A DNA stretch of 64,000 bases, from the NCBI GenBank assembly GCA_965205385.1, contig CBDBGS010000008.1:745752-809751 (forward strand), in the 5' to 3' direction. The notes under the pieces are model-generated. The model did not search any database and was not told where the DNA came from. It was given only the letters and a program-made list of their open reading frames with translations. This document shows positions 33,131 through 50,021 of this stretch, piece after piece. Position 1 is the stretch's first letter. Every line of letters starts with the position of its first letter. Position numbers and translations under genes: made by a program. This stretch comes from Dehalococcoidia bacterium (GTDB lineage: Bacteria > Chloroflexota > Dehalococcoidia > Lucifugimonadales > UBA3495).

Positions 33131-33315
33131 TCCAGATGGTGGATCAGGGGAAAGAGTTGAATCAGCTCTGTCCCCGACCCAATTAAGTTTACTGTAGATG
33201 AAGCCGATGCACTACCATAGGACCCTGCTCTTAATCATGCTTGTGATGGTTTCAGGTGTTATCCTCGAGACAGTTCAGAGTTTCGAAGTCTGACGGATGT
33301 GGGCAGAATGCAAAT

Positions 33316-33552: not shown

Positions 33553-33962
33553 CGTCGGTCGTTGATGCGTCAGTGTTCGTCTCCGCACTAGTTGACCCTG
33601 GTCCGGAAGGCCAATGGTCGGAGATTGCCATGATCAGTGATGATCTGGCCGGTCCCGAATTGGCCTTGGCGGAAGCCTGCAATCTTTTGCGTCGATTAGA
33701 GCAATCCATCCTAATCACGCGTTCAGAGGCTGACAGGCTTCATGAACAGCTGCTTAGGGTCGAGATCAGGCTCTTTGGGTATGGGCCCTATGCCGAGAGA
33801 ATATGGCAGCTACGTTCGAATTTGACCTGCTATGACGCCTGGTACGTTGCCCTAGCCGAGGACCTAGACTGCCCTCTGATCACACTTGACCTCAGGCTCA
33901 GCCGCTCCACCGGACCGAGCGGCGAGTTTGTCACGCCACCGCCTAGGCAGACAAGCGAATAA
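33549..33962 (+). CDS. vapC: type II toxin VapC (PIN domain RNase)
   Basis: A GTG start at 33549 gives ~137 aa. The acidic PIN residues sit in VVDASVF, LALAEACN, CYDAWYVALAE and LITLD. Confidence 0.7.
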   Translation: MTSVVDASVFVSALVDPGPEGQWSEIAMISDDLAGPELALAEACNLLRRLEQSILITRSEADRLHEQLLRVEIRLFGYGPYAERIWQLRSNLTCYDAWYVALAEDLDCPLITLDLRLSRSTGPSGEFVTPPPRQTSE

Positions 33963-34054
33963 GCGGGTGGGCAACCTGAAGCGGGGCGATTCTGGGAGGG
34001 TCTGTGGGTCGTGGAAGCCGCAAACTATGTTCTCGGCCGCGAAGTTAGCGGTGG

Positions 34055-34077
34055 TACCAAAGGAGTGAATCGCACTC
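34055..34077. repeat. degenerate direct repeat of the tRNA-Arg 3-prime end (putative distal att site)
   Basis: TACCAAAGGAGTGAATCGCACTC matches TACCCCCGGAGAGAATCGAACTC at 49950-49972 at 18 of 23 positions, in the same orientation. Confidence 0.45.
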
Positions 34078-34106
34078 CTTCCTACTTATAGCTATCAGGG
34101 CCGTAT

Positions 34107-34129
34107 ATTACCACACCGTTTACCACACC
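34107..34129 (+). promoter_or_regulatory. two arm-type repeats (ATTACCACACC / TTTACCACACC)
   Basis: The same motif occurs 5 times at 49838-49900, in the same orientation. These are putative integrase or excisionase arm-binding sites. Confidence 0.5.
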
Positions 34130-34253
34130 AAGGCCGCTTGTCTAGGCTTACCTATTCCCTTTTGCGTTGGTAAAATAGGTTCAATCTTGTAAGGGATGGT
34201 GAACGATGCAATGGAAGCTGAGTACATAACCACATTGGAAATAGCCAAGATGC

Positions 34254-34404
34254 TAAACCAATACCAAGGTGGGATGTGCATTTCGGTGGTCTTGACGAGG
34301 ACCGAAAGGAATCCATTGTTCCTCATATCACCTCAAGGCCCCAACTGGGTAGGCACCGACAGTGCCGTATGGCGATATGTACATTTCACCTTGGCTTTAG
34401 TTTA
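34254..34404. mobile_element. MITE-like element (~147 bp) flanked by TA
   Basis: The terminal inverted repeats TAAACCAATACCAAGGTGGGATGTGCAT and ATGTACATTTCACCTTGGCTTTAGTTTA match at 22 of 28 positions. It has no coding capacity and sits inside the xis reading frame. Confidence 0.55.
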
Positions 34405-34408
34405 GTAC

Positions 34409-35065
34409 TCAGTCAACCGTAAAATCGGAAGGGTAAAGGCGGTGAAGTTTGGTTCGTGCGTCCCGGGTGTTGAACCGCCAGTTGATGGTGGCTCTGGCGG
34501 CGTTGCGCTCCGTGACCAGAGCATCGACTTCCCGCCGGAGGGCCTCCTCGCCGGAGAGCCGCTGCTTCAGGCAGGAGCGGGACAGGACGCTGAACTCGAT
34601 CTCCGCCATATTCAGCCAACTCCCGTGCTTGGGGGTGTAATGAAACTCCAGCCGCCTGGCTATCCGCCGGGCTTCCTCAGCCGGGAAAGTCTCGTACAGC
34701 GATGCCCGGCGATGGGTGTTCAGATTGTCCAGGACAACCCTTACCACCTCGGCTTCCGGGTAGGCTTCATCCGCCAGCCAGCGCATCCGGCGGGCGAAGT
34801 CTTGCATCGTGCGTCGCTCCGTGACCGCCACCTCTCGCCAACCTGCCAAGGGCTCGCAGGCCAAGAACAGGTTGCGGGTACCCTCCCGCCGGTATTCGTA
34901 GTCCTGCCGCAGCGGAAGTCCCGGCCGGGGCGGCAGAGCGGGCCGGGTCTCCGCCAACAACTGGGTGGATGTCTCGTCAAAACAGACCACCGGACGTTGG
35001 GGATCATAGGGTTCGGCGTAGAGATCCAGGACATCCTCCATGTTAGCCACAAATTCCGCGCTCAC
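34409..35065 (-). CDS. IS630 transposase, DDE catalytic part (orfB)
   Basis: 218 aa with the DDE_3 pattern (VVCFDETS...VLDNLNTHR...WLNMAEIEF). The -1 frame upstream reads ...KKNALKPWQKKEWCIPKVSAEF, the usual contiguous IS630 sequence. Confidence 0.8.
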   Translation of the reverse strand: MSAEFVANMEDVLDLYAEPYDPQRPVVCFDETSTQLLAETRPALPPRPGLPLRQDYEYRREGTRNLFLACEPLAGWREVAVTERRTMQDFARRMRWLADEAYPEAEVVRVVLDNLNTHRRASLYETFPAEEARRIARRLEFHYTPKHGSWLNMAEIEFSVLSRSCLKQRLSGEEALRREVDALVTERNAARATINWRFNTRDARTKLHRLYPSDFTVD

Positions 35066-35580
35066 CTTGGGAATGCACCACTCCTTCTTCTGCCACGGCT
35101 TGAGGGCGTTTTTTTGAGACGCTGGCGCACCCCCTCGTGGGACATGGAGGGCGTCAGCCCCAACTCGACCACCTTCCCGGCCAACAGACGCAGGGTCCAG
35201 TGGTCATGCCCTTCCGGCGGCGGGCTGCAGGCCAAGGCGATCAGGTGGGCTTCGCCACGGTCGTCCAACTTCCGGGGCCGGTTGGCCTGGGGACGGTCCT
35301 GCAAAACCCCCTCCAACCCTTCTTCGGCAAAGCGCTGCTTGACCCGGTATACGGTGCTCAGGGCCACATCCAAAGCTTCGGCCACTTGGGGCGCCGCCCA
35401 ACCGTCGTCGCTCTTTAGGAGAATCTGCGCCCTGGCGGTCACTCGGGCTGAGCTTTTCCCAACCCGGATCAGTCGCTGGAGTTCTTCCCGTTGTTCCTGT
35501 GCCAGCCCCACTGCGTACTTGTCCCTCATCATGACGCCACCCTCCACCATCAACACTTCCCACCAGGCAGGATAGCTCAA
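35062..35580 (-). CDS. IS630 transposase, N-terminal HTH part (orfA)
   Basis: 172 aa with HTH and winged-helix segments (LSTVYRVKQRFAEEGLEGVLQDRP). It ends shortly after an A7 run. Confidence 0.8.
   Translation of the reverse strand: MSYPAWWEVLMVEGGVMMRDKYAVGLAQEQREELQRLIRVGKSSARVTARAQILLKSDDGWAAPQVAEALDVALSTVYRVKQRFAEEGLEGVLQDRPQANRPRKLDDRGEAHLIALACSPPPEGHDHWTLRLLAGKVVELGLTPSMSHEGVRQRLKKTPSSRGRRRSGAFPR
35109..35115 (-). other. A7 slippery run joining transposase orfA and orfB (-1 frameshift site or frameshift mutation)
   Basis: The minus strand reads CTC AAA AAA ACG. A -1 slip after the second AAA yields L-K-K-N-A-L-K-P-W, the canonical IS630 junction. Confidence 0.5.
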
Positions 35581-36363
35581 TTGGCCCCTTTCTTAAATAA
35601 ATACCAAAACCAAGTTGACTGACTACTAGGGATTAGCCGTCAAACTATCTACAACTGGGGGAATCGGGGCAAGCTGCCGCCGTGCTACATCCTGGGGCGG
35701 CGGACTCGGCGATGGAACCGCAAGGAATTTATGGAATGGCTCGAAGCACGGCGGGTTAGGCGGGAATATGACGAACAGCGAACCTAAAACAATCTGTTGG
35801 CGGACGGGAAGAAATCGCGCCGGGACGCAACCGGCGCGAAATCAACCGTGGAAGTGTCTACCAATGCGAGACAGGTCCATACCAAGTCTAGCCTAACGTC
35901 AATCCCGCTACCGCCTACGCCGGCACGTTTCCGGTGGGCGCTCATGGTCAACGGGATAGGCGTTAGGTATGACGTTCGCGGCCTACGCAATCAAGCACAG
36001 CTACCCGGCAAGGAAGAATGGACAGACATTACGGATGGCGTAGCAGCCAAGATACGGGAAACCCTGGCAACCGTGCCATTCCCGATACGCAACCGGGACG
36101 GGTTTATAGAGGATGCGGGCGGGATACTCCAAACCAATACCCAACACTTCCATGAATTGATGGTCAACGCCTGCGCGTTCAATGCGGCGGACCCTTTGAT
36201 CGAATACTTCGACGATCTACCGCGTTGGGACGGTCTGCCGCGCCTTGGAGCGTGGCTTTTCCATTGTTTCGACGTTGCCGACGAATCCCTAGAGTTATCG
36301 GAGTGGGCGGGAACGTTCGTGTTCCTCGGTTCGGTATGGCGGGCAAAGCAACCCGGCGTCAAG

Positions 36364-37777
36364 CTAGTACTACAGTCGCAGATTAAAAACGGATAGAATT
36401 GGGGCAATCAGCGGGTGGTGAGGTGAGGCTGTGGTTGTTGTGAGGGATGAGGTTGCGGAAGTGGCTCGGTGGGCCGAGGGCATCGAGCGGGTACACGAGT
36501 GCATCGGTGGACGGTTCCGGCGTCCGGAGCCGCGGCGGCGGGCGCTGGACTATCTGAAGGGGTTGCTCAGCCCGGTGGAGCGCAAGAACGGCTGGCAATT
36601 GGCGGAGCGGGCAGGCGACGCCACTCCCGATGGGGTGCAGCGCCTGTTGTACAACTACCAGTGGGACGCGGACCTGGTTCGCGATGACTTGAGGAGCTAC
36701 GTGATCGAGCGTCTGGCCGACGCTGCGGCAGTTCTGGCGGTGGATGAAACCGGATTCCTCAAGAAAGGAGACAAGTCGGTTGGGGTGCAGCGTCAGTACA
36801 GCGGCACGGCGACGGATCGAGAACAGTCAGATTGGCGTATTCTTGGCCTATGCCAGTGCCAGGGGGAGGACGCTGCTGGACCGGGAGTTGTACCTGCCCC
36901 AGGTGTGGGCGGAGGACTTGGAGCGCCGGCGGGAGGCCGGTGTGCCGGAGAGTGTCGGCTTTCGGACCAAGCCGCAACTGGCGCAGCTGATGCTGGAGCG
37001 GGCGGTTGAGTCGGGAGTGCCCTTCGGCTGGGTGGCCGGGGACGAGGTCTACGGCAACGACCGCAACCTGCGGCTGTGGCTGGAGCGAGAGGGCGTTCCC
37101 CACGTGCTGGCCATCAAACGCAGCGAGAAGCTATGGGCTTTGACGGACAGGGGGCCGCGACAGGTGAGGGCCGACCGTCTGGCCTCAGGGGTTGAGGAAT
37201 GCGCTTGGGTGAGGTGCAGCGCCGGGGACGGAGCCAAGGGACCACGGATCTACGACTGGGCCACTGTGGAAATACGTCCCCTGAGGGAGCCTGGCAAGGG
37301 CTATTGGCTGCTGGCCCGGCGCAGTCTGGCCAACCCGGGGGAGCTGGCCTACTACGTCTGTTACGGCCCGGCGGGAACGACCCTGGAGGAACTGGCGAGG
37401 GTGGCCGGGACCCGGTGGGCCATAGAGGAGTGCTTCGAGGAGGCCAAGGGACAGGTGGGGCTGGACCAGTATGAAGTGCGGAGGTGGGACGGCTGGTACC
37501 GGCACATCACGTTGGCGATGTTGGCCCACGCGTATCTGTCCGTGATCAAGCATCAGGCCATGGAACAGGGAGAAAGGGGGGCTACTACGGCCCGGATGAA
37601 GAGCTGATTCCCATGACAGCGCCGGAAGTGCGCCGACTGCTCACCCGCCTCGTATGGACGGAGAACCAACTGCCTGATTTCATCCTGTATTGGTCGTGGT
37701 GGAGACGACGCCACCAAGCCAGAGCCCGGCGTTGCCATTACCAACGACGACTTTCTAATCTGCGACTGTAGTACTAG
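36364..37777 (+). mobile_element. IS701-family-like insertion sequence with CTAG target duplication
   Basis: The ~25-bp terminal inverted repeats are TAGTACTACAGTCGCAGATTAAAAA and the reverse complement of TTTCTAATCTGCGACTGTAGTACTA. CTAG is present at both junctions (36364-36367, 37774-37777). Confidence 0.8.
36431..37607 (+). pseudogene. IS701-family DDE transposase, frameshifted
   Basis: ORF 36431-37009 ends its meaningful part at ...[27 protein letters not shown] 36744-37607 carries on with [15 protein letters not shown]...WAIEECFEEAKGQVGLDQYEVR in another frame. The junction at about 36810 lacks 2 nt (or has 1 extra) relative to the usual QYSGTAGRIEN. Confidence 0.7.
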
Positions 37778-38564
37778 ACGAAATGCCAGTAATCACCGGG
37801 AAGGGCGGTATCGGCAAGTCTACCGCCTTGCGGTGTGTCCTACCGCCATCGCTCCAGTACACATTCACGGATGGGCTGAACCTAGCGGCCAACCCGAAGG
37901 AACGTATCGAAGCGTTACAGGGGCGCTCCATCGTGGAAGCGGCGGAGATGCAAGGCGCAAGGCGAGCCGATATTGAATCTCTCAAGGCGTTCCTATCGCG
38001 TACCGACGATGGCAGCACGCGGCTATCCTACCGCCACAACCCGGAACCAATGCCCAGGCGGTGCATAATCGTAGGCACAGCCGACCGGCCCGACCCGCTA
38101 CCCGATGATCCCAACCTACGCCGATTCGTTCCGATCACACTCACAGGCGGAAGCCCGCAAGACGTTATGGAATTTCTGGACGAATGGCGGGACCAACTCT
38201 GGGCCGAGGCACTCTACCTTTACGATCACGGCGAGAGCGCACGGCTACCAGATGAATTGAAAGCACTACAGAAGGAAGCCACCGAGTCCGCACGTTCCCG
38301 CGATTCCGTGCTTGAAGATTTGATAGAGCGATGGCTAGAGGATGGACGTGACCTATTCACCATTGAAGCGGTAGCCACAGGCATAGGACTAACAGACATG
38401 GGTAAGTCCGCTAGGCTATCGCCCTATGACACCAAGCGCATATCGGGAGTGCTACGGCAAAAGGGCTTTGCATCAGTGTCCAAGCGCATCGACGGCAAGA
38501 CAGTACGCCGATGGGCGTTACTACCCGTTACAGATTCAGACCAATTCTAGGCACGATTGACCAA

Positions 38565-38733
38565 GTGTAACGGGTGTAACGGGTTGTAACGGCTAACTTT
38601 GGAGGGAAAGCAAGGAAATAATCCGTTGTGGGATATAGACGTGGGTAGGGCATAAATAAATAGTTAATAGCCCTACAGTATAAGACTCAAATCATCTCAA
38701 GAATTACCCGTTACACCCGTTACACCCGTTACA
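38565..38733. promoter_or_regulatory. iteron-flanked AT-rich region (putative island replication origin or operator)
   Basis: Three tandem (G/T)TGTAACGG(G/C) units occupy 38565-38593. Three perfect tandem CCCGTTACA units (the reverse complement) occupy 38707-38733. They flank ~110 bp of AT-rich DNA containing a GTAGGGC...GCCCTAC hairpin. One more CCCGTTACA copy lies at 38524-38532. The region sits directly 3-prime of the virE-like gene. Confidence 0.55.
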
Positions 38734-38754
38734 CACTGAATGGGAGGATGAACA

Positions 38755-39120
38755 ATGGCAACACATCTAATCTACGGCAAAGCCACGAACCGTATCAGAG
38801 GTGCGTCGGAAATTCACACATATTGCGGTGAGGTAATAGCCGAAGATCACCCAGATTTCGCCGCTTTGCGTGATTACGAGCCGGATCACACAGCCACCTT
38901 TTTCGCGACCATCTTCAACGACATACCTGACCTGTGTGAAGCGTGCCACCAAAAGGTTTTATCGCCGAGGATATACCACATTGACTCGGATAACGGACTG
39001 ACATATTGTGGATTGGATGCGGCCGAGGTTTGGACTGGCGGCCCGTTCATCTCCCCCTTATGCCAACCATGCCGCAATGGCTTGATTTCCGAACATCCGC
39101 TGTTTGGTGCTGCCAACTAG
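38755..39120 (+). CDS. hypothetical Cys-rich protein (island)
   Basis: 121 aa preceded by a GGGAGGA RBS. It has CxxC-like pairs (CEACHQK, CQPCRNG). No family assignment. Confidence 0.45.
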   Translation: MATHLIYGKATNRIRGASEIHTYCGEVIAEDHPDFAALRDYEPDHTATFFATIFNDIPDLCEACHQKVLSPRIYHIDSDNGLTYCGLDAAEVWTGGPFISPLCQPCRNGLISEHPLFGAAN

Positions 39121-39212
39121 CCCGGTTATGGCACCGCCGAAAATCCTTGGAGGGGCGTACCAGCGTTGGGCGGAGTGACGAACTACGTAGATACAAGAAA
39201 GAGGGAGGCAAG

Positions 39213-39572
39213 ATGAACAGACAAGGCAGCGATATGACCATTGGGCATGCTTTTGCGGCCCGATGGCTTGTCAGGAAATATGCTGAATACAAGAGCAATC
39301 CCAGAATGCAGCAGCGACAACCTGAACTTCCTCAGCCTGACGAGCTTGCCCAGCGAATTGCTGATGCTGTCGATTCCCATGTAGAACAGAAAATTCTTGA
39401 GCTTCGCATCAAGTTGCACGCTGTTGCTGTAGAGGTGGCGGATGGGACAGAGGGTTCCAAAGACCAAGTTGTGATCAGTTCGGATGAATTACTACAAGAC
39501 CGAGCTTTGGTACAGGTGGCCCACGAGTGCTTAAACACAACCTTAAGCGCGATGCACAAATTTCCCGTCTAA
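39213..39572 (+). CDS. hypothetical protein, positional candidate for a small terminase subunit
   Basis: This uses the internal ATG of track ORF 39006, preceded by AGAGGGAGG. It is 119 aa and sits directly upstream of, and overlapping, TerL. The call is positional only. Confidence 0.35.
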   Translation: MNRQGSDMTIGHAFAARWLVRKYAEYKSNPRMQQRQPELPQPDELAQRIADAVDSHVEQKILELRIKLHAVAVEVADGTEGSKDQVVISSDELLQDRALVQVAHECLNTTLSAMHKFPV

Positions 39573-41068
39573 TAGCCAGTCTTGAGTCCGCACCAGTAGG
39601 AGACGGCGATCTGGTGGGGCAACCGTTCAAGTGTCTGCCCTACCAGCGGCGTTTCCTTCGCGGTGCGTTCAAGCCGGGTGTGCTTCGGGCTGGCCTGAGT
39701 CTGGCCCGTGGTGGCGGTAAGAGTGGCTTGGCGTCGGCCTTGGCCCTGGACGCCATCCGGCCCGCCGGGGTGCTGCATCGCCAAGGCTTCGAGGTGGTGC
39801 TGATAGCGTCATCATTCCAGCAGGCCAGGATTATTTTTGAGGCGGTGCGGACTTCCCTGGAGCTAATGGGCGAAGATGGCGACTACCGCATCCGCGACCA
39901 GCAGAACCTTGCGGACATTCAGCACCGGGAGACAAAGGCGCGGTTGCGGGTTGCCGGTGCTGACAACCGGAGGGCGCACGGCTGGCGCGTCAATCTCGTG
40001 ATCGGCGATGAACCTTCACAGTGGGGTCCAAGGGGCGAGCTACTGGCGGCTGCTATCCGCACGGCATTGGGCAAGCGGAAGGATGCGCGGGCGCTGTTCA
40101 TAGGTACCCGGCCAGCGAGTGATGCTCACTTTTTCGCCAGGTTGCTTGAGGAAGATGACCCTTCCGTTTTCTCACTTGTCTATGCCGCCGATATGGATGG
40201 CAATCCTTTCAGCGCGAAGACCTGGCGCAAGGCCAACCCCGCCCTGAGCTACGGGTTGCCAGACATGGAAGTGTTGCGGGCTGAGGCGCGGCTTGCGAAG
40301 CGCGATCCTGCGGAGTTGGCGACGTTCCGCAGTCTCCGGTTGAATCAAGGCACCAGTGAAGTCGAATCTCGGATGCTCATTGACGCAATGACCTGGCGAG
40401 AGGTGGAAACGGAGGAACTGCCGCCACGCGAAGGACCGGTGAGTTTCGGTGTCGATCTTGGTGGAACTGCTGCCTTCAGTGCTTGTGCCGCCTACTGGCC
40501 GCGTTCGGGAAGGCTTGAAGGCTTCGTAGCCTGTGGCAATGATCCCGTATTGCCGGAAAGGGCGCTGGCCGATGGTGTCAGTGGCGTTTATGAAGCGATG
40601 CGTGACGCCGGTGAACTGGTGCAGCTTGGCGGGCGCGTGGTGCCCGTTGGCCCGTTCCTAGTGGAGTCGGTGCTGCGGTACGGGAAGCCGCAAGCGGTGG
40701 CGGCTGACCGTTGGCGATCCGGTGAACTTGAAGACGGTGTGCGCGAGGCGAGGTTGAGTCTGCCTGAACCAACATGGCGCGGGCAGGGGTGGCGTGATGG
40801 TGGCGTTGACGTGCGGCTGTTCCGGTCTGCGGTGCTGGAGGGGAAGGTGGCGGCACCTGTAAGCCTAGCCATGCGCGCGGCTCTTGCTGAGGCTAGGACG
40901 GTGGCGGACAACAGTGCCAACGAGAAGCTGGCGAAGTCCGGCGAAGGGCAACATAGGCGGCGCGGTAGAGATGATCTGGCAGCCGCTATCGTGCTGGCCG
41001 TTGCTGAGGGAACACGGCGTGAGGCGTCCAGGGAAGTCAAGAAGTGGCGTTATCGGGGCGTGGCGTGA
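39527..41068 (+). CDS. terL: phage terminase large subunit (Terminase_1-like)
   Basis: 513 aa with Walker A LARGGGKSG and Walker B LVIGDEPSQW. It has the LPYQRRFLRG N-terminal block and a C-terminal RNaseH-like nuclease half. The exact start is uncertain. Confidence 0.75.
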   Translation: MLKHNLKRDAQISRLIASLESAPVGDGDLVGQPFKCLPYQRRFLRGAFKPGVLRAGLSLARGGGKSGLASALALDAIRPAGVLHRQGFEVVLIASSFQQARIIFEAVRTSLELMGEDGDYRIRDQQNLADIQHRETKARLRVAGADNRRAHGWRVNLVIGDEPSQWGPRGELLAAAIRTALGKRKDARALFIGTRPASDAHFFARLLEEDDPSVFSLVYAADMDGNPFSAKTWRKANPALSYGLPDMEVLRAEARLAKRDPAELATFRSLRLNQGTSEVESRMLIDAMTWREVETEELPPREGPVSFGVDLGGTAAFSACAAYWPRSGRLEGFVACGNDPVLPERALADGVSGVYEAMRDAGELVQLGGRVVPVGPFLVESVLRYGKPQAVAADRWRSGELEDGVREARLSLPEPTWRGQGWRDGGVDVRLFRSAVLEGKVAAPVSLAMRAALAEARTVADNSANEKLAKSGEGQHRRRGRDDLAAAIVLAVAEGTRREASREVKKWRYRGVA

Positions 41069-41352
41069 GCTGGCGAAAGGGACCGCCGATCAACCGGAGA
41101 CGGTGGGCGATAGTCCGCCGCCTTGTTTTTCAGCGCGACGGCTATAGATGCGTGGACTGCTCAAAGCCTGGACGCCTCGAATGTGACCATGTGGTGCCGC
41201 TTCACGTCAACCCTACCCAAGACCCTTACGACCTGGACGGGCTGAGAACACTTTGCCGGTCTTGCCATATCAGACTCACGGCGGAACAGAACCGCAAACC
41301 CAACCCTGGGCGTGACGCATGGCGAAAATTGATTGCGGAAATCGTAGTGTGA
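41065..41352 (+). CDS. HNH endonuclease
   Basis: A GTG start overlaps the TerL stop (GTGA). The sequence VFQRDGYRCVDCSKPGRLECDHVVPL...LRTLCRSCHI is the HNH motif. Confidence 0.8.
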   Translation: MSWRKGPPINRRRWAIVRRLVFQRDGYRCVDCSKPGRLECDHVVPLHVNPTQDPYDLDGLRTLCRSCHIRLTAEQNRKPNPGRDAWRKLIAEIVV

Positions 41353-41380
41353 TAAAATGTAGATAGTTAGTATTACATCT

Positions 41381-42673: not shown

Positions 42674-42682
42674 AGGCCAGCG

Positions 42683-43339
42683 ATGGACTACCCGATATTT
42701 GACGGTGAGCTTGCTGTTGAAACTCGCCAAGATGGGGAGGGGCGGACTATCCGCGCCAGCTTCCCGTATAACCGCGTGGCCACCATCTCCTCGACCGGGC
42801 GCACAAGAAAAGAGGTGTTCCGCAGCGGTAGTCTTTCATGGCAAGTCCGCGAGTTTGAAAAGCTCCAACAGCAACTATCGGACACCATATCCGGGACGAT
42901 TTCCCGGTTTCAGCGTGACGCGGTGGAGGATGCCCTGGAAAAGCGAAATACGTTCCTGTTGGTGGGCCACGACTACAACCGGGCAATTGCCGACATGCGA
43001 TCCGGGACGTTGGCCGTGACGCATACCGATGATGCGGTCCTGCTACGCGCCGACATACCGGCTGAGGGGAAAGCGCCTAGCTGGGTAGAGGACGCCGTTA
43101 AGGGAATCAACGGCGGGCAAGTCCGGGGCGTGAGTCCTGGATTCCAAGTCCCGGCGCGACGTGGCGGGGAACGGCTGATACCGGAAGAGGGAGACGGCGG
43201 CGCGATGATGCGCGAGATCACGGACGCCGTAGCTTTCGAGTATTCGTTGCTGGCCCGCCCCGCGTACAGTGGCACCACCGTAGACGCCCGCGCCGATGAT
43301 CCCGCGCTGGTGCCACCTCGGAGACGGGTATGGCTCTGA
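42683..43339 (+). CDS. HK97-family prohead (maturation) protease, S78/U35 type
   Basis: 218 aa. LLVGHDYNRAIA...GQVRGVSPGF...EYSLLARPAY fits the prohead protease His/Ser block pattern. Confidence 0.7.
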   Translation: MDYPIFDGELAVETRQDGEGRTIRASFPYNRVATISSTGRTRKEVFRSGSLSWQVREFEKLQQQLSDTISGTISRFQRDAVEDALEKRNTFLLVGHDYNRAIADMRSGTLAVTHTDDAVLLRADIPAEGKAPSWVEDAVKGINGGQVRGVSPGFQVPARRGGERLIPEEGDGGAMMREITDAVAFEYSLLARPAYSGTTVDARADDPALVPPRRRVWL

Positions 43340-45279
43340 TAACCGCAGACGAATTCAGGGCTGCCCTTCGGCTTGGTGACGCACCGGAAGAAGTGGCCGA
43401 GGCCAACAGAATCTACACCTATGCTGTCGAGGCGGTAGAGAAGTACGCCTCCGGTGCCAGTGAGGCGGCGAAGTCTGAGGCGACCATCCGGCTAGGCTCC
43501 TACCTCTACGACCAACCCACTTCCAGCCGTGGCGACCACTACGCCGCAGCGGGACGAAACTCCGGTGCATGGGCCATCCTTGCGCCATACAGAATACGCC
43601 GGGCCGGGACCATAGGCGAGGCGGTCCAGATTGCCCGTGAGAGCGGTTCGCCAGGCAACCCCGTTATCGGCGTGGACGTTACAGGCGATATCCTGACCGT
43701 GACGTTTGCCGATGGGAGTATGGAAACCCACACTCTACCCGACACCGGCGTTGACCAAGTGGCGCGGGATAGCGCAGCGATGGCGGAAGCGACGGCGGCA
43801 GGGGCCGTTACGGACGCGGCCACCAACGCCTTGGCAGTTAGCGCGGCGCAGAGTACGGCGGATGGCAAGATAGACGAAGCCGATGCAAACATCCTGATAG
43901 CGGCGCACGCGGCCATAGTTACGGCGCACCATACGCCTCCCACTGGAGGCGCACCTACCTATACCCTGTTGGGTAGGGCATCTCTCACCACTAACCATTT
44001 TCTGTTCAGTGTGGAGCATGGAAACGTTCTCGCCGAAGAACTGATAAACGGCGAGGCGGAATCCCTTTTGCTTACGTTGACGGACTTCAACCGTCACTAC
44101 CATATATGGGAAATTCCGCTCCGGTGGCGCGACTACACCTACGGCCCTAACTACGAGTTTTACAAGGAATATGTCAACAATTCGACGGGCGCGGTTTCGG
44201 GCATGAACCTGGCGGTGGAGCGTAACACGTCCACAGCCGACACAACGGCCATTCTTAGCATGTTGACAACGGCGGTATTCGACACTGGCACACAATGCGC
44301 GGTGTACTCGGTAACTGGCGCTGGCGGAAGCGGTGGCGGCGGTGGCGGCGGGATGTTCTCTGGCACAGACCAACTAGCCAGAGACGCGGCGGCAACGGCG
44401 CAAGGTGAGATAGACACGCACGAGGCCAGCACTCATAACACCGACATAACGGCGCAAAGTACGGCGCTGAACGCACGGCAGACGGCGGAACAGGCGCAAA
44501 CCACGATTGAGACTCACGAGGCCAGCACCCATAACCACGACGCCACGGCGCGTACAGCGGCGGGGGCGGCGCAAAGTGAAATAGACGTGCATGAGGCGTC
44601 AACCCATAACCACGATGCCGGGGCACGTACAGCGGCGGCGAACGCACAGATAACGGCAGACACGGCGCAATCGGCTGCATCGGGCGCGCAATCCGATGCT
44701 GATACCGCGCAGACTACCGCCGGGCAAGCGCAAGCGACGGCGACGGCGGCGCAGACTGATATTGACAATCACGAGGCGTCAACCCACAACACCGATGCCG
44801 GGGCGCGCACGGCGGCGGCAAATGCTCAATCCGCTATCGAAGATCACGGACGCACAACCCATAACACCGATACCGTTGCCAGGAACGCGGCGGCGGCGGC
44901 GCAAACGGCGGCGGAAGCGGCGGCGGGCGGGCGGCCTACCGTGCTGTATGAAGCGGCAACGGCGGCGATTGGCGGGAGTACGGGGTTGATAACTGGCAAC
45001 GTGGTTTGCCCGGAAACTGGCGAGCTTGAATTCTATTTCGAGGGATTGACCGGCTCTCGGCAGGGCGGCGTTGCCTACGCTCGGATACCGGCGGCAAGGA
45101 TACGGGGCGCGGTGTCTGCGCTTACGACTGCCTACAACAATGACAATGAAAACGTGCTGGTAATCGCGCACGGGGCAAACCGTGGAATTGGGATAGCAGT
45201 ACAAGCGACCACCAACTATCTAATGCTGAACGCGCAGGCGGCGGGAAACCATTACATTCGCATATCGCACATAGCCTAG
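43330..45279 (+). CDS. gp6-like head-tail connector domain fused to a 550-aa repeat-containing extension
   Basis: The N-terminal ~100 aa (ITADEFRAALRLGD...IRLGSYLYDQ...ILAPYRIRR) fit Phage_connect_1. A globular segment and a poly-Gly tract (GAGGSGGGGGGG) follow. Then come five I(D/E)xHEASTHN(T/H)D...AR(T/N)AAxxAQ repeats and a C-terminal domain. The stop TAG is part of the CTAG target of the IS. Confidence 0.6.
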   Translation: MALITADEFRAALRLGDAPEEVAEANRIYTYAVEAVEKYASGASEAAKSEATIRLGSYLYDQPTSSRGDHYAAAGRNSGAWAILAPYRIRRAGTIGEAVQIARESGSPGNPVIGVDVTGDILTVTFADGSMETHTLPDTGVDQVARDSAAMAEATAAGAVTDAATNALAVSAAQSTADGKIDEADANILIAAHAAIVTAHHTPPTGGAPTYTLLGRASLTTNHFLFSVEHGNVLAEELINGEAESLLLTLTDFNRHYHIWEIPLRWRDYTYGPNYEFYKEYVNNSTGAVSGMNLAVERNTSTADTTAILSMLTTAVFDTGTQCAVYSVTGAGGSGGGGGGGMFSGTDQLARDAAATAQGEIDTHEASTHNTDITAQSTALNARQTAEQAQTTIETHEASTHNHDATARTAAGAAQSEIDVHEASTHNHDAGARTAAANAQITADTAQSAASGAQSDADTAQTTAGQAQATATAAQTDIDNHEASTHNTDAGARTAAANAQSAIEDHGRTTHNTDTVARNAAAAAQTAAEAAAGGRPTVLYEAATAAIGGSTGLITGNVVCPETGELEFYFEGLTGSRQGGVAYARIPAARIRGAVSALTTAYNNDNENVLVIAHGANRGIGIAVQATTNYLMLNAQAAGNHYIRISHIA

Positions 45280-47069
45280 AAACCGGGCCGAAAAGTCCTG
45301 GTTGGGTAGGGGGATTTGGGCAATAAAGCCGACGTGAGCAGGATCACGGACCACAGTTGTCCGAGCCGGACCGCGCAGAAATTGGCCGCAGCATGGGCGA
45401 CAACAAAGGGGACAATATTGAGGACGACGCTGCGGCCTGTTGCGCCGCCACCGGTACGGCCCGACCGCCCGAGTTTCCCGGCCACCAGGGTCAGGTTGGC
45501 TACCGTGGCAGCCAGATACAGCTGGAATCGCGTCTTGACCCTGCCGAAATAGCGGGACTGGCGAATGCCCAACTGGACCAGCCGGGCCAACCGGTGTTCC
45601 ACCACCACTCGGCGCACTCGATATTCGTCATAATGAGTGCTTTGCTGCAACGCTCGGGCCTGCTGCAGCAGGGCTTCCTGGGGATGGATCAGCACCCGCC
45701 GCCCCCTACTCCCCTTGGCTGCGATGCACTGGGACCGCAGTGGACATGTCCGACATTCGGCCCCGTCGAACTGGAAGGCCTGCAAGCGGTGGACCCGCCC
45801 TGTGCGACCCGTCCGCTTTCCCGCCGGCACGATGGTGTGGGTAACCTGTCCGGCGGGACAGGTGCAACTGCCCGCGGCCAGGTCAATATGGAAGTCCTCT
45901 TTCGGAAAGTGCTTCCGGTCGGGCCGTCCCGGCACTCTGGCCACCAACCGGCGTCCCGCATCGGCGAATGCCTGCCTGGTATCGCCATCCCCATAGGCGG
46001 CGTCGCCCATGGCTTCCTCCACCGGCACACCGGTGTTGGCCTCGCTCTGCTCCACCAATTCCAGCGATCCCAGGTTGTCCGGAGCGTTGCCGGGCAATAC
46101 CTCCACCGCGGTGATCAGCTGGGAGTCGGTGTCCACCACGATGGCCGCCTTGTGTCCGTCGAACCGTCTACTGCTGCTCTTGTGGCCGTGGCGCATCTCC
46201 GGGTCATGCACCGACATCATCCGGTCCCGGCTCACCCCGTCCTTGAGATTCACTCCGTCATCGGTCCGCTCCACGTCCTGGAGCAGCAACTGCCCCAGCA
46301 GTTCCGCCGCCGCCACTATCTGCTGCCGCTCAGCGCTATCCTCCCCCAATTCCCTCTGCGCCTGCCGCGACAACTCCAACAACCGGTCGGCGTCTCTCAC
46401 AATCTCGGCCAGCAGGGCCTGCCGCGCCCGTTTGTCGCTCCAGTCGATGGCCGACTCACCCTTCACGCTGGAACCCAGGTACCGCTCATATCCCCGGGCC
46501 TTGGCCCATTCTTTGACGCTGGACTTCTCCACTGCCGCCAGCGCCCGCAACAGCTTGACGATCCCGTCCGCCAACAGATTGTAGGTGTCCTTCACCGCGC
46601 CACGGCCCAGGATGTTGGTCGTGTCCAACGCCACCCGCATCCCGCGCCCTTTCAGATACCCCGACTCCCGGGCCAAACGCAGGCTGGACTCGAACACCTC
46701 CCGCACCTTGCCGTGCAGTATCAGCTGGGCGCGGAACACCTGCAGCGTGCTCTTGGCGAAGGGACGGTCTTCCACCTCAATCCCCAAGGCCACCTTCCAC
46801 CGGATGTCGAAGTCGGCCCGGGCCTTGGCCTCAGCGTCGCTCACCTTGTCGTGGGACTGGAGCAGGAGCGCCGTCGCCAGCAGGCTGGGCGGCACGCTGT
46901 CCCGGCCGTTGTCGGCGCAGTAGAACCCGGCGAAATCGGGGTCCCGGAACAGGCGGCCCCGCAGCGAGGCCAGCAGACCGTAGAAGGTGTCCCGCCCCAC
47001 GTGGTCCAGATACAACCGGTCTGCTTCCCAGAGGCCCCTCTGGTCCGACCGCTCTCCCAGCATGCTCAA
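45276..47069 (-). CDS. IS1182-family transposase (DUF772 N-terminal + DDE domain)
   Basis: 597 aa. GRDSVPPSLLATALLLQSHDKVSDAEAKARADFDIRWKVALGI is the DUF772 block. It also has the zinc-ribbon-like CTCPAGQ...CRTCPLRSQC and a C-terminal DDE region. Confidence 0.8.
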   Translation of the reverse strand: MSMLGERSDQRGLWEADRLYLDHVGRDTFYGLLASLRGRLFRDPDFAGFYCADNGRDSVPPSLLATALLLQSHDKVSDAEAKARADFDIRWKVALGIEVEDRPFAKSTLQVFRAQLILHGKVREVFESSLRLARESGYLKGRGMRVALDTTNILGRGAVKDTYNLLADGIVKLLRALAAVEKSSVKEWAKARGYERYLGSSVKGESAIDWSDKRARQALLAEIVRDADRLLELSRQAQRELGEDSAERQQIVAAAELLGQLLLQDVERTDDGVNLKDGVSRDRMMSVHDPEMRHGHKSSSRRFDGHKAAIVVDTDSQLITAVEVLPGNAPDNLGSLELVEQSEANTGVPVEEAMGDAAYGDGDTRQAFADAGRRLVARVPGRPDRKHFPKEDFHIDLAAGSCTCPAGQVTHTIVPAGKRTGRTGRVHRLQAFQFDGAECRTCPLRSQCIAAKGSRGRRVLIHPQEALLQQARALQQSTHYDEYRVRRVVVEHRLARLVQLGIRQSRYFGRVKTRFQLYLAATVANLTLVAGKLGRSGRTGGGATGRSVVLNIVPFVVAHAAANFCAVRLGQLWSVILLTSALLPKSPYPTRTFRPGF

Positions 47070-47142
47070 GCCCTCGCTATTTCTTGATGGCTCAAGTATA
47101 GCTGACCACCCGGCTGAAGCCAGTTTCCGGCCACGTTTCTAG
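45276..47142 (-). mobile_element. IS1182/IS5-superfamily insertion sequence in the intergenic CTAG
   Basis: The imperfect terminal inverted repeats are CTAGAAACCGGGCCGAAAAGT (45276-) and the reverse complement of CAGTTTCCGGCCACGTTTCTAG (-47142). CTAG is at both ends. Removing the element restores ...ISHIA-TAG followed by an AGGGG RBS and the next gene's ATG. Confidence 0.7.
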
Positions 47143-47151
47143 AGGGGTGTT

Positions 47152-47496
47152 ATGCCAGCCGACCGCCTAATCACCGTCAACCTCACAGGGGAAGGTATGC
47201 GGAACCAATACGGGGAATACGTCGAGGGCGAAGTTACGCCTATACGGACGTGGACAAGGCGGCGTGACAAGACACAAGAGGATATTGAATCTGAGGGGGG
47301 CGTCCTAACGAGTGTGCAACGTACTTGGCGCATTAGGTGGGACAGCAGGATAGCGGACGTTCCAGTGGTGCGCATCGAGGTGGTGGATGGGCCGTACACC
47401 TTCAACGTACTGAATCAAGTTGAGGTCACCGAGCAACGAGGCGGGCCAGACCTGCGGCGCAGGTTCATAGACATTGAAGGAGTGTACACCAGCTAA
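47152..47496 (+). CDS. phage head closure / head-tail adaptor protein
   Basis: 114 aa. Size, position and the TWRIRWDSRI...Y.F.V block are typical of the Phage_H_T_join family. Confidence 0.55.
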   Translation: MPADRLITVNLTGEGMRNQYGEYVEGEVTPIRTWTRRRDKTQEDIESEGGVLTSVQRTWRIRWDSRIADVPVVRIEVVDGPYTFNVLNQVEVTEQRGGPDLRRRFIDIEGVYTS

Positions 47497-48557
47497 TGCG
47501 TTTCCCATGGCAAAAGCGTGAAACAAGGCAAAGCGGCGGTGACTTCTCCGATGCCGTTGTCAGACTGATTGAAGCTCAGGCGGCGGGAACTGCTGCGGAC
47601 GCTTCCAGCACGGCGGCGGTGGAGGCGGCGTCTGGTGCGCTTTCACGGGCGTTTGCCATTGCCGAGGTAGTTGGAGACGGTTGGGTACAGGAAGCCGTGT
47701 CTCCGGCGTTCCTGGCGCAAGTGGGGCGTGATCTGGTTAGGTCGGGCGACTCATTGCATGTCATCGAAATGGACGGCAAGGGCAACGTGACCCTGTTGCC
47801 GTGTTCTTCATGGCACTTCGAGGGTGACGCTCACCCGGACACCTGGACCGTGCGGGCCACCTACTACGGGCCTAGCAGCAGCAGCACTCGGCACCTGCCC
47901 TTTAGCGGCGTGGTGTTCGTGAAGTGGGGCAGCACACCCGGTCAACCCTACACCGGCACGGGACCGCTATCGTGGGCGCATACCACCGCCAGACTTCAAT
48001 CCGAAACCGAACGCAGCCTTACCGACGAGGTACAAGGTCCATTGGCGCAAATCATAGCCATACCGCAAGATGGAGGTGACGGCGGCGAAGATGATCCGCT
48101 GGCGGAACTGAAAGCCGACATTCGGACGGCAAGAGGCCGCGCCCTGTTGGTGGAGACGGCGGCGGCGGGTTGGGGTGAGGGCAGAGGTGCCGCACCACAA
48201 CGCGACTGGCAAGCAAGCCGCCTTGGGCCGATGCCGCCGGAGAGCATGGCCACCATACGCAAGGACTCCTTTGGTTCGGTGGTGGCGGCGTGTGGCGCAT
48301 CGCCCGCCCTGTTCGACGACTCCGACGGCACCAGCAAGCGGGAAGCACTGAGACAGTGGCACATGGGAACGGTGCGGCCATTGGCGCGGCTGTTGGAAAC
48401 GGAGCTTACCGCCAAGCTGGAAACGCCGGTCAAGCTGACATTCGACGCCTACTCCCTGGACATCGCGGGGAGGGCGCAGGCGTTCAAGGCTTTCGTGGGC
48501 GGCGGGATGGACGTTAACGAGGCGTTGGTCAAGACGGGGTTGATGGACCCGGACTAA
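47496..48557 (+). CDS. HK97-family phage portal protein
   Basis: 353 aa. The start overlaps the previous stop (TAATG). It has Phage_portal-like central and C-terminal blocks (...ESMATIRKDSFGSVVAACGASPALF..., LETELTAKL). Confidence 0.65.
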   Translation: MRFPWQKRETRQSGGDFSDAVVRLIEAQAAGTAADASSTAAVEAASGALSRAFAIAEVVGDGWVQEAVSPAFLAQVGRDLVRSGDSLHVIEMDGKGNVTLLPCSSWHFEGDAHPDTWTVRATYYGPSSSSTRHLPFSGVVFVKWGSTPGQPYTGTGPLSWAHTTARLQSETERSLTDEVQGPLAQIIAIPQDGGDGGEDDPLAELKADIRTARGRALLVETAAAGWGEGRGAAPQRDWQASRLGPMPPESMATIRKDSFGSVVAACGASPALFDDSDGTSKREALRQWHMGTVRPLARLLETELTAKLETPVKLTFDAYSLDIAGRAQAFKAFVGGGMDVNEALVKTGLMDPD

Positions 48558-48587
48558 CCCTTCCTTCTGTAAGCCACGCACAGGCGC

Positions 48588-48630
48588 GAAACTAGGGGCG
48601 GTGGAGCCGAATGCCACCGCCCCTAGTTTT
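48588..48630. terminator. bidirectional Rho-independent terminator between portal and integrase
   Basis: A 13-bp perfect stem CTAGGGGCGGTGG / CCACCGCCCCTAG has AAA upstream and TTTT downstream. It lies between convergent genes. Confidence 0.75.
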
Positions 48631-48651
48631 CAGACCATGCCTAGCGCCTTA

Positions 48652-49845
48652 TTAGAAGGGCGATTGATCGGGAGCCACCATATCGCCCCACGCTTCCATG
48701 ATCGGACGCCGCTGGTCGATTAGGTCTGACCGAAAGTACGCCGCTTCCACCGCGCCTAGCGGATTATGACTAAGGCAATACTCAATCGCTACGCGGTCGT
48801 ATGTTCCTTGTTCCGCTGCCCAATCTCGGAAGCTGGAGCGGAAGCCGTGCGGGTGTGCGCCGATATTGTTGACGCGGGCAAACTTGGATAGGCAATTTTC
48901 CGATGGTGCCTTGCCGAGCTTCGGGAACACCAAACCCGTACTATCCGCCAACTTCCGCTTGGCTTCCCGGAGAACATCGACGGCGGCGCGGGATAGTGGC
49001 TTGCGGTGTTCCTTGCAATCCTTGGAGCGGTCCGCCGGGATTGACCATACCCGATGGTCAAGGTCGATTTCTTCCCAACGTGCGCCGCGTGCTTCGGCAG
49101 ACCGTGAAGCGGTCAGAATTAGGAATTCAAAACACAACCGCGTTACGGTCATAGCTTCCGAATCCCGGATGGTGTTGATTGCGTCTGGAACCTGCGAGTA
49201 GTGAAGGGCGGTAAAGTGGCCTTGAATCTTGGGGATTGGCGGCAACGCTGCGCTGATAACTTCGCCAGCGGGATTTACGTCTATGTGACCTTCCGCCATC
49301 GCGTACCGGCAGACCTTGGACATCGCCTGGCGCATCTTCCGGGAGGTTTCAACCTTGGATACCCGGAGTCCCTTTAGGATGCAAATCACGTCCTGGCGGC
49401 TAACTTCGGTGATCGGGATATCGCCAATGACCGGGAGGACGTGCAATTCCATCTGCTGTATCCAAGTCTTACGCGCCTTGTCAGACCGCCAGCGGTTCGC
49501 GTAAACGTCCTGGACCGTGTACGTCAAATCCCGGAAGGTTGGGACGCCTTTGGATTCTTCGGACTGGACGCGAAGTTTGCCAGTGGCCCAAGGATTCCCA
49601 CCACCAGCAACAACTACGCGGTTGGCAAGGGCAAGGTCACGCGCCTTACTGAGCGAAATATCCTTGACGGAGCCGAGACCCTTATCTGTGCGCGTGCCGT
49701 CAACGGTGATTCTCTGGACCCAACTTTTGGAACCGCTAGGCGAGATGTTCAGGTATAGGCCGTTACCATCGCCATATCTTCCCGGTTCTTTTAGACTCTT
49801 TACCTTTGCCGCTACCAGTGCCATTTTGCCCACTCCCTTTACCAC
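48652..49845 (-). CDS. int: tyrosine recombinase, P4-type integrase with DUF4102 arm-binding domain
   Basis: GDGNGLYLNISPSGSKSWVQRI is the DUF4102 block. The catalytic region contains ...TASRSAEARGARWEEID..., HGFRSSFRDWAAE and LSH...AY. The likely true start is the ATG at 49824 (MALVAAKVKSLK). The start is about 105-125 nt from the tRNA 3-prime end. Confidence 0.85.
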   Translation of the reverse strand: MVKGVGKMALVAAKVKSLKEPGRYGDGNGLYLNISPSGSKSWVQRITVDGTRTDKGLGSVKDISLSKARDLALANRVVVAGGGNPWATGKLRVQSEESKGVPTFRDLTYTVQDVYANRWRSDKARKTWIQQMELHVLPVIGDIPITEVSRQDVICILKGLRVSKVETSRKMRQAMSKVCRYAMAEGHIDVNPAGEVISAALPPIPKIQGHFTALHYSQVPDAINTIRDSEAMTVTRLCFEFLILTASRSAEARGARWEEIDLDHRVWSIPADRSKDCKEHRKPLSRAAVDVLREAKRKLADSTGLVFPKLGKAPSENCLSKFARVNNIGAHPHGFRSSFRDWAAEQGTYDRVAIEYCLSHNPLGAVEAAYFRSDLIDQRRPIMEAWGDMVAPDQSPF

Positions 49846-49900
49846 GTTACCACTTGAGTTTTACCACGCTATTTACCACACCACGCGGAATTTACCACAG
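49838..49900 (+). promoter_or_regulatory. five arm-type repeats (T)TTACCAC between int and the tRNA
   Basis: Copies start at 49838, 49846, 49859, 49872 (TTTACCACACC, identical to 34119-34129) and 49891. All share one orientation. Confidence 0.55.
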
Positions 49901-49949
49901 ATTAGGCGTGGAAATCTATACCTAGAAGGGGCAAATACTGACCAATAAG

Positions 49950-50021
49950 TACCCCCGGAGAGAATCGAACTCTCGTCTCTGGCTCCGGAGGCCAGCACTC
50001 TATCCGCTGAGCTACAGGGGC
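49950..50021 (-). tRNA. tRNA-Arg (anticodon CCG), no encoded CCA
   Basis: The minus strand folds as acceptor GCCCCTG with D, anticodon and T arms, with anticodon loop CTCCGGA and T arm GAGAG-TTCGATT-CTCTC. The 3-prime acceptor strand is CGGGGGT followed by A. The acceptor stem has G-U pairs. Confidence 0.85.

Follow-up and report, generated by a model that had tools for sequence, protein, structure and literature searches.

We analysed a 64,000-nt stretch of DNA (hereafter the window) from a Dehalococcoidia bacterium of the phylum Chloroflexota (assembly GCA_965205385.1, contig CBDBGS010000008.1, positions 745,752-809,751), and within it an integrated element at window positions 34055-50021 that occupies ~16 kb together with its insertions. 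Our analysis indicates, with a probability of about 75%, that this region is an integrated member of a family of ~10.5-kb elements carrying a full set of HK97-type head genes and no tail or lysis genes, that it is a satellite which borrows its tails, and that the present copy has been crippled by insertion sequences (IS). Judged from its genes the element appears functionally similar to the phage-inducible chromosomal islands of the capsid-forming type (cf-PICIs) but seems to represent a separate lineage, and we regard it as an analogue rather than a demonstrated member of that group. An initial annotation of this DNA had proposed a cf-PICI member or analogue in a different phylum; the analogue and the Chloroflexota host are borne out by our results, membership is not demonstrated.

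The head genes lie in a single plus-strand block and comprise the following features:

39527-41068, plus strand: large terminase (TerL) of HK97 type (phrog_9 2e-58; weak Pfam matches to the TerL nuclease and ATPase)
41044-41352, plus strand: HNH endonuclease, a packaging accessory (PF01844 1e-7; phrog_144 8e-16)
41381-42673, plus strand: major capsid protein with HK97 fold and an N-terminal helical delta-like domain (PF05065 4e-5; phrog_10 2e-7)
42683-43339, plus strand: prohead serine protease, S78 (PF04586 1e-11)
43330-45279, plus strand: candidate adaptor-fibre fusion of 649 aa, residues 1-93 being homologous to a 100-120-aa protein of relatives and followed by a 555-aa extension
47152-47496, plus strand: probable head-closure protein of 114 aa (family profile against the PDB 'Head-closure protein' 9c39_E, 1e-4)
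47496-48557, plus strand: portal protein (PF04860 1e-11, 44.9 bits against a 39.1-bit cut-off; phrog_12 4.5e-10)

Profile matches bear out the naming of TerL, HNH, S78 protease and portal in the initial annotation, and the capsid, portal, protease and terminase all match their corresponding families. The closest cultured relatives of TerL are HK97-like phages, with 25% identity over 91% of the protein. We assign the head-closure protein, also named previously, with moderate confidence from the match of its family profile to PDB head-closure chains, an hhalign comparison with HK97 gp7 (E 0.0025) and a weak PF05521 match of its counterpart in a sister copy of the element (L056, see below). Scans with Pfam and PHROG found no tail or lysis genes in the window element and agree with the earlier statement that tail, lysis and CI-like genes are absent. 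Freed of its insertions the element consists of int, xis, rep, two small open reading frames (ORFs) and the head genes, with no contiguous tail, lysis or immunity modules. The gene order is TerL-HNH-capsid-protease-adaptor-closure-portal, and this non-canonical arrangement with the portal last, which had been pointed out before, recurs in relatives in the same or a rotated form.

The capsid protein required a closer look as it scores just under the PF05065 cut-off (23.4 against 24.2 bits). Its true start is probably M9 at 41405. The capsid profile had no match among PDB sequences and a fold search was therefore needed. An AlphaFold2 (AF2) model built with 88 homologues (predicted local distance difference test, pLDDT, 79.8) begins with a helical domain of ~130 residues, which a disordered linker joins to a body of HK97 fold. 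Foldseek returned 352 PDB matches for this model at E<=1e-3 (probability 1.00 to HK97-fold capsids), and all of those listed were HK97-fold shells including phage capsids such as that of HK97, the capsid of the gene transfer agent (GTA) RcGTA and encapsulins, while a comparison with BFVD gave full-length matches to HK97-family capsids. The HK97-type capsid of the initial annotation is thus confirmed by model and fold search. Neither capsid nor portal had a tblastn match in 50,697 phage records.

In order to find relatives we scanned one genome per species, which yielded 50 loci (counts out of 51 below include the window). By tblastn and ORF clustering the core genes were found on the same strand: capsid in 51, protease in 48, TerL in 46, portal in 45, HNH in 43 (beside TerL in these loci), integrase in 35 and an adaptor-sized protein of 100-120 aa also in 35. 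Their order is that of the window, rotated to capsid...portal-TerL-HNH in four loci (L017, L034, L035, L043). In 17 loci an exact repeat of 13-60 nt links the 3' end of a tRNA to a site just past the far end of the block, and of the distances between these attachment (att) sites fourteen fall within 9.8-11.2 kb, two measure 12.0 and 12.5 kb and one is 8.6 kb; one att-bounded copy carrying transposases (IS-laden) measures 16.6 kb. The family is one of size-conserved integrative elements of ~10.5 kb each. The 17 att-bounded relatives contain int, a replication module, TerL, HNH, major capsid protein, protease, adaptor, closure, portal and little else. Among the families listed for them 80 non-core ORFs match primases, helicases, AAA_25, DUF3102, HNH and transposases, and tail-tube, tape-measure, baseplate and lysis families do not occur among the 25 commonest. 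The initial annotation had looked to tail and lysis modules in IS-free homologues as the sign of a truncated prophage; none appear among the families listed for these relatives, and L056 has the same content as the window element. Beside the other 33 loci the large ORFs belong to the host or code for primases, integrases and transposases (25 commonest families listed).

Three relatives were found in IMG/VR. One of these (L054, IMGVR_UViG_3300009898_000002, 10,029 bp) bears a 99-bp direct terminal repeat indicative of a complete genome of ~9.9 kb. It encodes TerL, HNH, capsid, S78 protease, portal and a D5_N/DUF5906 primase-helicase, no integrase was detected in it, and it may be a non-integrating or plasmid-like member. 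Capsid-bearing contigs of ~10 kb were also considered as free genomes and rejected; their names (ctg..._1x_l) suggest single long reads. More than 1000 capsid homologues exist in the protein collection, of which the best 120 are 55-95% identical and none functionally named, and the best 120 homologues of the adaptor-fibre extension likewise lack functional names in public sources. In existing annotation the family thus seems to be without a name.

The sister copy L056, on a 73-kb contig with 47x coverage, occupies the same chromosomal site as the window element (order SBP_bac_5, FitA/PIN, element, Memo, epimerase). Host flanks of the two copies are 87-95% identical and the block from TerL to adaptor is 94% identical, whereas the xis-replication-origin module, the fibre extension and the closure gene are not alignable or only 53% identical, which points to module replacement. 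The exchange of these three modules between syntenic copies shows that recombination with an external pool is ongoing. Ratios of nonsynonymous to synonymous substitution rates (dN/dS) between the two copies are 0.17 for TerL, capsid and protease, 0.15 for the portal and 0.12 for the integrase, with 0.07-0.18 for the flanking host genes. The values for the head genes reflect purifying selection and imply that these genes are kept functional.

These data bear on the possibility, raised in the initial annotation, that a tailed prophage has decayed here to its head module, its tail, lysis and immunity genes having been deleted. The window copy is visibly decaying, with three IS and a miniature inverted-repeat transposable element (MITE) in 16 kb, and its head genes are of ordinary HK97 type, as such a remnant would lead one to expect. 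We nevertheless reject this reading and consider it very improbable because the relatives at different tRNAs and in different phyla are bounded by att repeats and most share both the narrow size range and the same head-only content, because a complete 9.9-kb genome with terminal repeats exists and because selection on the head genes is purifying. The place of a prophage early region is moreover taken by a dedicated helicase for replication with its iteron origin, and the att sites enclose neither tail remnants nor pseudogenes.

Purifying selection on head genes that occupy the same chromosomal site in two genomes could also be read as the mark of a domesticated, GTA-like or otherwise host-co-opted head cluster that is kept for host benefit. 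The replication gene is IS-disrupted in both copies with the head genes intact, and the RcGTA capsid is among the Foldseek matches, both of which fit this alternative. Known GTAs however encode tails and are without integrases. GTAs of the RcGTA type combine a head and tail cluster with a fixed, vertically inherited chromosomal locus and have neither integrase nor att sites. Unlike them the present family is without tail genes. Its members carry integrases, have att repeats at many different tRNAs, differ in their replication modules and origins and can occur several times in one genome, all of it characteristic of selfish mobile elements. Modules have been swapped between the syntenic copies, and the IS insertions look recent, since copies of the same IS5/IS1182-like element at different positions (window 45276-47142 and L056 5181-7047) are 99.7% identical over 1867 bp. 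We judge host co-option to be distinctly unlikely.

Carriers of the tail-less satellite family are labelled as Dehalococcoidia, Longimicrobiales, Bryobacterales, Vicinamibacterales, Binatia, Alpha- and Gammaproteobacteria and Candidatus Spongiisociaceae (Actinomycetota), and one capsid homologue comes from a Nitrospira metagenome-assembled genome (MAG), and the family is found in at least seven bacterial phyla. The MAG names suggest that many carriers are sponge symbionts. When each capsid, TerL or portal is paired with its nearest neighbour, about one third of the pairs span different phyla or classes. Capsids of an alphaproteobacterium and a Binatia genome are 80% identical, and the portal of the window element is 75% identical to that of a Longimicrobiales element; the window TerL is 80% identical to TerL of Dehalococcoidia loci. 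The phylum of the window host is indicated by its RadA, which is 67-71% identical to named proteins of Chloroflexota and SAR202, whereas an NCBIfam scan of host genes yielded nothing on taxonomy. A further locus, L001, shares 89% identity with the window in the capsid and 90% in protease and portal while its TerL (L001 2616-4040 against window 39527-41068) is only 32% identical, indicating that the packaging enzyme has been swapped independently of the shell genes. Some genomes hold two or three family members, such as L003 and L042 on contig CBDEGN010000002.1 and L013, L025 and L048 in isolate 78a68249.

Good documentation of phage satellites is limited to Proteobacteria and Firmicutes and a few cases in Actinobacteria. 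The SatelliteFinder survey found them mostly in the first two groups and rarely in Actinobacteria, and reported none in Chloroflexota (PMC10085698). The top-ranked results of our literature search included no paper tying cf-PICIs to the phyla found here. The family would extend the capsid-forming, tail-borrowing lifestyle to symbionts among the Chloroflexota, Gemmatimonadota, Acidobacteriota, Acidimicrobiia, Binatia and Nitrospira, groups in which the biology of mobile elements is almost unknown. Dozens of att-bounded elements of ~10.5 kb with head exchange across phyla also represent a data set on whether tail-less capsids cross very wide host boundaries.

The 649-aa protein between protease and closure genes had been described as a gp6-like connector. 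An adaptor-sized domain of ~93 aa is indeed present by position, but the gene in fact encodes a long fusion with no significant profile match, and residues 1-93 are best regarded as a candidate adaptor on the grounds of position and family conservation. The short adaptor-sized family is found between the protease and the closure or portal gene in the 35 loci that have it. The extension includes helical HEASTHN repeats and a conserved C-terminal domain and has at least 120 homologues of 316-781 aa. Nearly all of these follow one plan, in which the adaptor domain is succeeded by a conserved segment (residues 100-200) and a middle domain that varies; then come HEASTHN repeats of ~25-32 residues each, in differing numbers, and finally a conserved C-terminal domain of ~125 residues. 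At the DNA level five diverged tandem-like repeats of ~75-96 bp encode the HEASTHN repeats at window positions 44387-44903. AF2 modelled the helical N-terminus well (pLDDT ~90) and a small beta domain and long helices fairly, with the middle and C-terminal domains poor; Foldseek with the 649-aa model (pLDDT 60) returned noise only. A reasonable guess is that the extension forms a ring of neck fibres, and at the portal vertex the fusion represents a definite structural novelty that can be tested.

Such a protein raises the question as to whether these elements need a helper tail at all. They could be autonomous tail-less or minimally tailed virus-like elements in which portal-proximal proteins, here the 12-fold adaptor-fibre, deliver the DNA. 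At least 120 fusions combine the adaptor with a variable fibre-like part and a conserved C-terminal domain, a mosaic typical of host-recognition proteins; head-module exchange across phyla is hard to explain by helper tails of narrow host range; and L054 is a complete genome with no integrase detected. However, most family members have a plain adaptor of 100-120 aa, a head-closure or 'stopper' protein is a feature of heads which attach to tails assembled beforehand, genes for a nozzle, needle, tailspike or lysis were not found, and the AF2 model of the extension is of low confidence and matched nothing. To our knowledge there is no tail-less HK97-fold bacterial virus. We consider an autonomous element unlikely.

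Taken jointly, the observations allow a broader proposal that we put forward as doubtful at present: a hitherto unrecognised and independently evolved lineage of capsid-forming satellites across at least seven phyla, apparently in sponge-type symbiont communities, in which head modules 75-80% identical between phyla would be natural evidence for trans-phylum tail piracy. The adaptor-fibre would give each capsid twelve satellite-encoded neck fibres, serving as its own device for host recognition or helper docking and perhaps making a helper tail unnecessary.

Under the tail-borrowing reading that we prefer, the life cycle of an intact element might run as follows. The element would be derepressed by a signal whose probable source is a tailed phage, either co-resident or infecting, Int and the AlpA-type Xis would excise it from tRNA-Arg and the VapE-type helicase would fire the adjacent iteron/AT-rich origin. 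From the same-strand operon would come a capsid protein that brings a scaffolding-like domain at its N-terminus, along with the S78 protease and the portal; together they would form small procapsids, into which TerL and HNH together with a small subunit would cut and package unit-length genomes of ~10-11 kb. The adaptor and head-closure proteins would then seal the portal and the filled heads would join sipho- or myovirus-type tails supplied by another phage. Dependence on helper tails, induction, small capsid size and cos packaging are steps that we infer by analogy.

A number of observations weigh against this reading. No small terminase subunit (TerS) was recognised, and iterative hidden Markov model searches with both small ORFs and clustering of the ORFs upstream of TerL gave no conserved candidate; nor was a cos site recognised. 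No repressor or inducer-sensing gene was recognised in the element, where Pfam and PHROG scans found no CI-type gene. Neither a helper phage nor a compatible tail-side neck gene was identified, the 64-kb window containing no prophage. Profile tests of the adaptor gave phrog_442 at E 0.55, no PDB sequence match and an hhalign comparison with HK97 gp6 at E 0.3. A 'neck terminator' domain (Phage_tail_terminator_9, 2.5e-13) occurs in one att-bounded relative and may represent an additional neck adaptor; with the 25 most frequent families listed in the scans, an isolated and rare tail-like gene could be present in some relative. Finally, several carriers are metagenome bins, though many loci lie on Mb-scale contigs.

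Among described satellites the cf-PICIs offer the most detailed comparison. The cfPICI model of SatelliteFinder has eleven components and forbids tails and holins (PMC10085698). Nine of the eleven are present in the window element (integrase, AlpA-type regulator, primase-replicase, HNH, TerL, portal, protease, capsid and head closure) and the forbidden classes are absent; for TerS there is a 119-aa ORF without a match as a candidate by position, ORFs at this place not being conserved across the family, and the adaptor is likewise a candidate by position. The prototype EcCIEDL933 of E. coli (15.5 kb) builds T=4 heads from an HK97-derived operon, the cf-PICI packaging operon being derived from the HK97 packaging system, and its capsids are released without tails, which they then take up from different phages (He et al. 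2025, 10.1101/2025.02.11.637232). As in cf-PICIs, the family is integrative with a tyrosine integrase, an AlpA-type helix-turn-helix (HTH) protein and its own replication initiator and origin. Its HK97-type packaging and head set likewise comprises HNH and TerL, the portal, the prohead protease, a capsid whose N-terminal domain is presumably cleavable, a probable closure protein and a candidate adaptor for head-tail joining. It has no tail or lysis genes, is of satellite-range size and is found in many unrelated hosts. It differs in its permuted gene order (the reference here being the order of HK97, in place of that of cf-PICIs), in having no recognisable TerS, in its smaller size (~10.5 against 15.5 kb), in the adaptor-fibre fusion of the window sub-lineage and in a capsid and portal without tblastn match in the phage records and a capsid profile without PDB sequence match. 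Hosts differ too, cf-PICIs being known from Proteobacteria and Firmicutes and the present family also from Chloroflexota, Gemmatimonadota, Acidobacteriota, Actinomycetota, Binatia, Nitrospira and Alpha- and Gammaproteobacteria.

Phage HK97 itself (39.7 kb) has the order TerS-TerL-portal-protease-capsid-adaptor-closure-tail. The element shares with it HNH-assisted packaging, a TerL whose closest cultured relative is of this type, an S78-type protease, a PF04860 portal, a gp7-like closure protein and an HK97-fold capsid with delta-like N-terminal domain and no separate scaffold gene, but unlike this tailed phage it is without tail, lysis and immunity genes and has its portal last. The Streptomyces satellites MulchRoom and MiniFlayer also encode their own terminase, portal, capsid and head-tail adaptor with no sequence homology to cf-PICIs, and MiniFlayer has its own portal-vertex appendage (PMC10690885), which shows that capsid-encoding satellites arose more than once. 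These satellites are without replicases or att sites, have direct terminal repeats and low GC content and use virulent helpers (PMC10690885), whereas the present family has integrases, att sites, replication modules and host-like GC content. P4-like satellites, PICIs and Staphylococcus aureus pathogenicity islands (SaPIs) resemble the window element in their P4-type integrase at a tRNA, an AlpA-type protein, an initiator next to an iteron origin and a size of ~11 kb; they redirect the capsid of a helper (Sid/Psu/Delta or CpmAB), with an alpha primase-helicase in P4-like satellites, and are without their own capsid, portal, protease and TerL, all four of which the window element encodes. Marine virion-encapsidated integrative mobile elements (VEIMEs) are comparable as environmental integrative satellites with integrases, AlpA, primase/helicases and sometimes HNH, but they lack a gene for a major capsid protein, and their packaging takes place as concatemers into helper capsids of full size (PMC9618062).

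The boundaries and the integration site of the element are marked by the following features:

~34053-34080, no strand: distal att remnant, a degenerate copy of the tRNA-Arg 3' end (19/25 bases identical to 49949-49973)
34108-34130, plus strand: predicted left arm-type integrase-binding repeats, TTACCACACCG TTTACCACACCA (repeat family search and TTTACCAC motif distribution)
48589-48629, no strand: perfect 16-bp inverted repeat, a terminator-like hairpin between the convergent portal and int genes
48652-49845, minus strand: P4-type tyrosine integrase of 397 aa (PF13356, Arm-DNA-bind_3; PF22022, Phage_int_M; PF00589, Phage_integrase; phrog_1 3.5e-45)
49838-49898, plus strand: predicted right arm-type integrase-binding repeats, four copies of TTTACCAC (repeat search)
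49949-50021, minus strand: tRNA-Arg(CCG), the integration target (ARAGORN)

Domain set and ARAGORN coordinates agree with the P4-type integrase reported beside tRNA-Arg, the gene adjoining the 3' end of the tRNA. The single plus-strand gene block runs convergent to the integrase gene, reportedly across a bidirectional terminator according to the same annotation; a perfect inverted repeat is present between them, though a scan for T-run terminators did not flag it. Promoter and terminator consensus scans gave matches at or below chance level. Where the window element has its degenerate distal copy, relatives carry att repeats that are exact over 13-60 nt. All five exact copies of TTTACCAC in the 64-kb window fall at the element ends (34119; 49838-49898), against a chance expectation of ~0.9 and with none of 100 shuffles giving five, and it is this confinement to both ends above chance by which they behave like arm-type integrase sites.

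Excision and replication functions are found at the left of the block:

34196-34255, plus strand: 5' part of xis/alpA, joining 35629-35787
35629-35787, plus strand: 3' part of xis/alpA, joining 34196-34255
35797-36367, plus strand: N-terminal part of a vapE-type replication helicase (phrog_256/1313 DNA helicase 1e-7)
37778-38550, plus strand: C-terminal P-loop part of the vapE-type helicase (PF05272, VapE-like, 6e-35; phrog_256 3e-40)
38514-38734, no strand: candidate replication origin, with three GTGTAACGGGT iterons, a ~110-bp AT-rich spacer, three inverted iterons and one further copy upstream
38755-39120, plus strand: Cys-rich ORF of 121 aa with no Pfam/PHROG match and no homologue in related loci
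39213-39572, plus strand: ORF of 119 aa directly upstream of TerL, a TerS candidate by position only, with no match in any search

The reconstructed Xis of 72 aa matches HTH_17 (3e-15) and Phage_AlpA (1.3e-6, 28.6 bits against a 21-bit cut-off), in keeping with the excisionase HTH named previously, and the gene then described as VirE/primase-type with a P-loop proved to be VapE-like. No separate primase domain was detected in the VapE-like/DUF5906 helicase. The iteron/AT-rich region and the two small ORFs are present at 38514-39572 as had been stated. The candidate origin directly follows vapE and all six exact copies of the iteron core GTAACGGGT in the window lie at 38523-38732, flanking the AT-rich spacer.

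Four insertions were delimited within the element:

34253-34405, no strand: MITE in xis (33-nt terminal inverted repeats, 79% complementary)
34403-35628, minus strand: IS630-family element in xis (DDE_3, HTH_32/HTH_29; 15-nt terminal inverted repeats; TA junctions)
36364-37777, plus strand: IS701-like element splitting vapE at CTAG (26-nt terminal inverted repeats, 96% complementary; PF13546, DDE_5)
45276-47142, minus strand: IS5/IS1182-like element (DDE_Tnp_1_6, DDE_Tnp_1, DUF772; 19-nt terminal inverted repeats)

The IS630-family transposase occupies two frames (34409-35065 and 35062-35580) and the IS701-like transposase is frameshifted. Excision of the MITE and the IS630-family element at the TA junctions restores xis in frame, and removal of the IS701-like element at the CTAG duplication restores vapE in frame with 447 aa, so that the proposed IS hits in xis and the replication gene hold. 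Removing the three IS and the MITE leaves an element of 11,248 bp, matching the earlier estimate of ~11.3 kb. The CTAG target of the IS5/IS1182-like element includes the stop codon of the adaptor-fibre gene and no ORF is broken, but the insertion detaches the closure and portal genes from the rest of the operon and is probably polar. With xis and vapE interrupted and this third IS cutting closure and portal off from the upstream operon, the window copy is most likely immobile at present. In L056 xis is intact and the replication gene is broken by an IS3-family element and by an IS5-like element; the replication gene was thus hit independently in the two genomes while the head genes are intact in both. 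Apart from the IS5-like copy in L056, no second copies of the three IS elements or the MITE were found in the window or related loci. All transposase-bearing insertions found in the 64-kb window (the three IS with the MITE) are within the 16-kb element, the remainder of the window not having been scanned systematically.

Some genes of possible defence function, and a toxin gene, were also observed. A DruA (Druantia) domain protein in one att-bounded relative is possibly a defence cargo gene. Directly outside the left att site of the window element is a PIN-domain toxin gene (33297-33962, plus strand), and on the sister contig L056 (1159-1799) the PIN toxin is paired with a FitA-like ribbon-helix-helix antitoxin. 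To the right of the element the window contains no phage genes, only host genes and a pair formed by a GmrSD_N (DUF262) gene (54483-55634, minus strand) followed by a RiboL-PSP/MAE_28990-type HEPN gene (53800-54486, minus strand). This patch, ~4 kb from the element, has a GC content of ~49-50% against ~60% elsewhere and looks like a small acquired defence pair.

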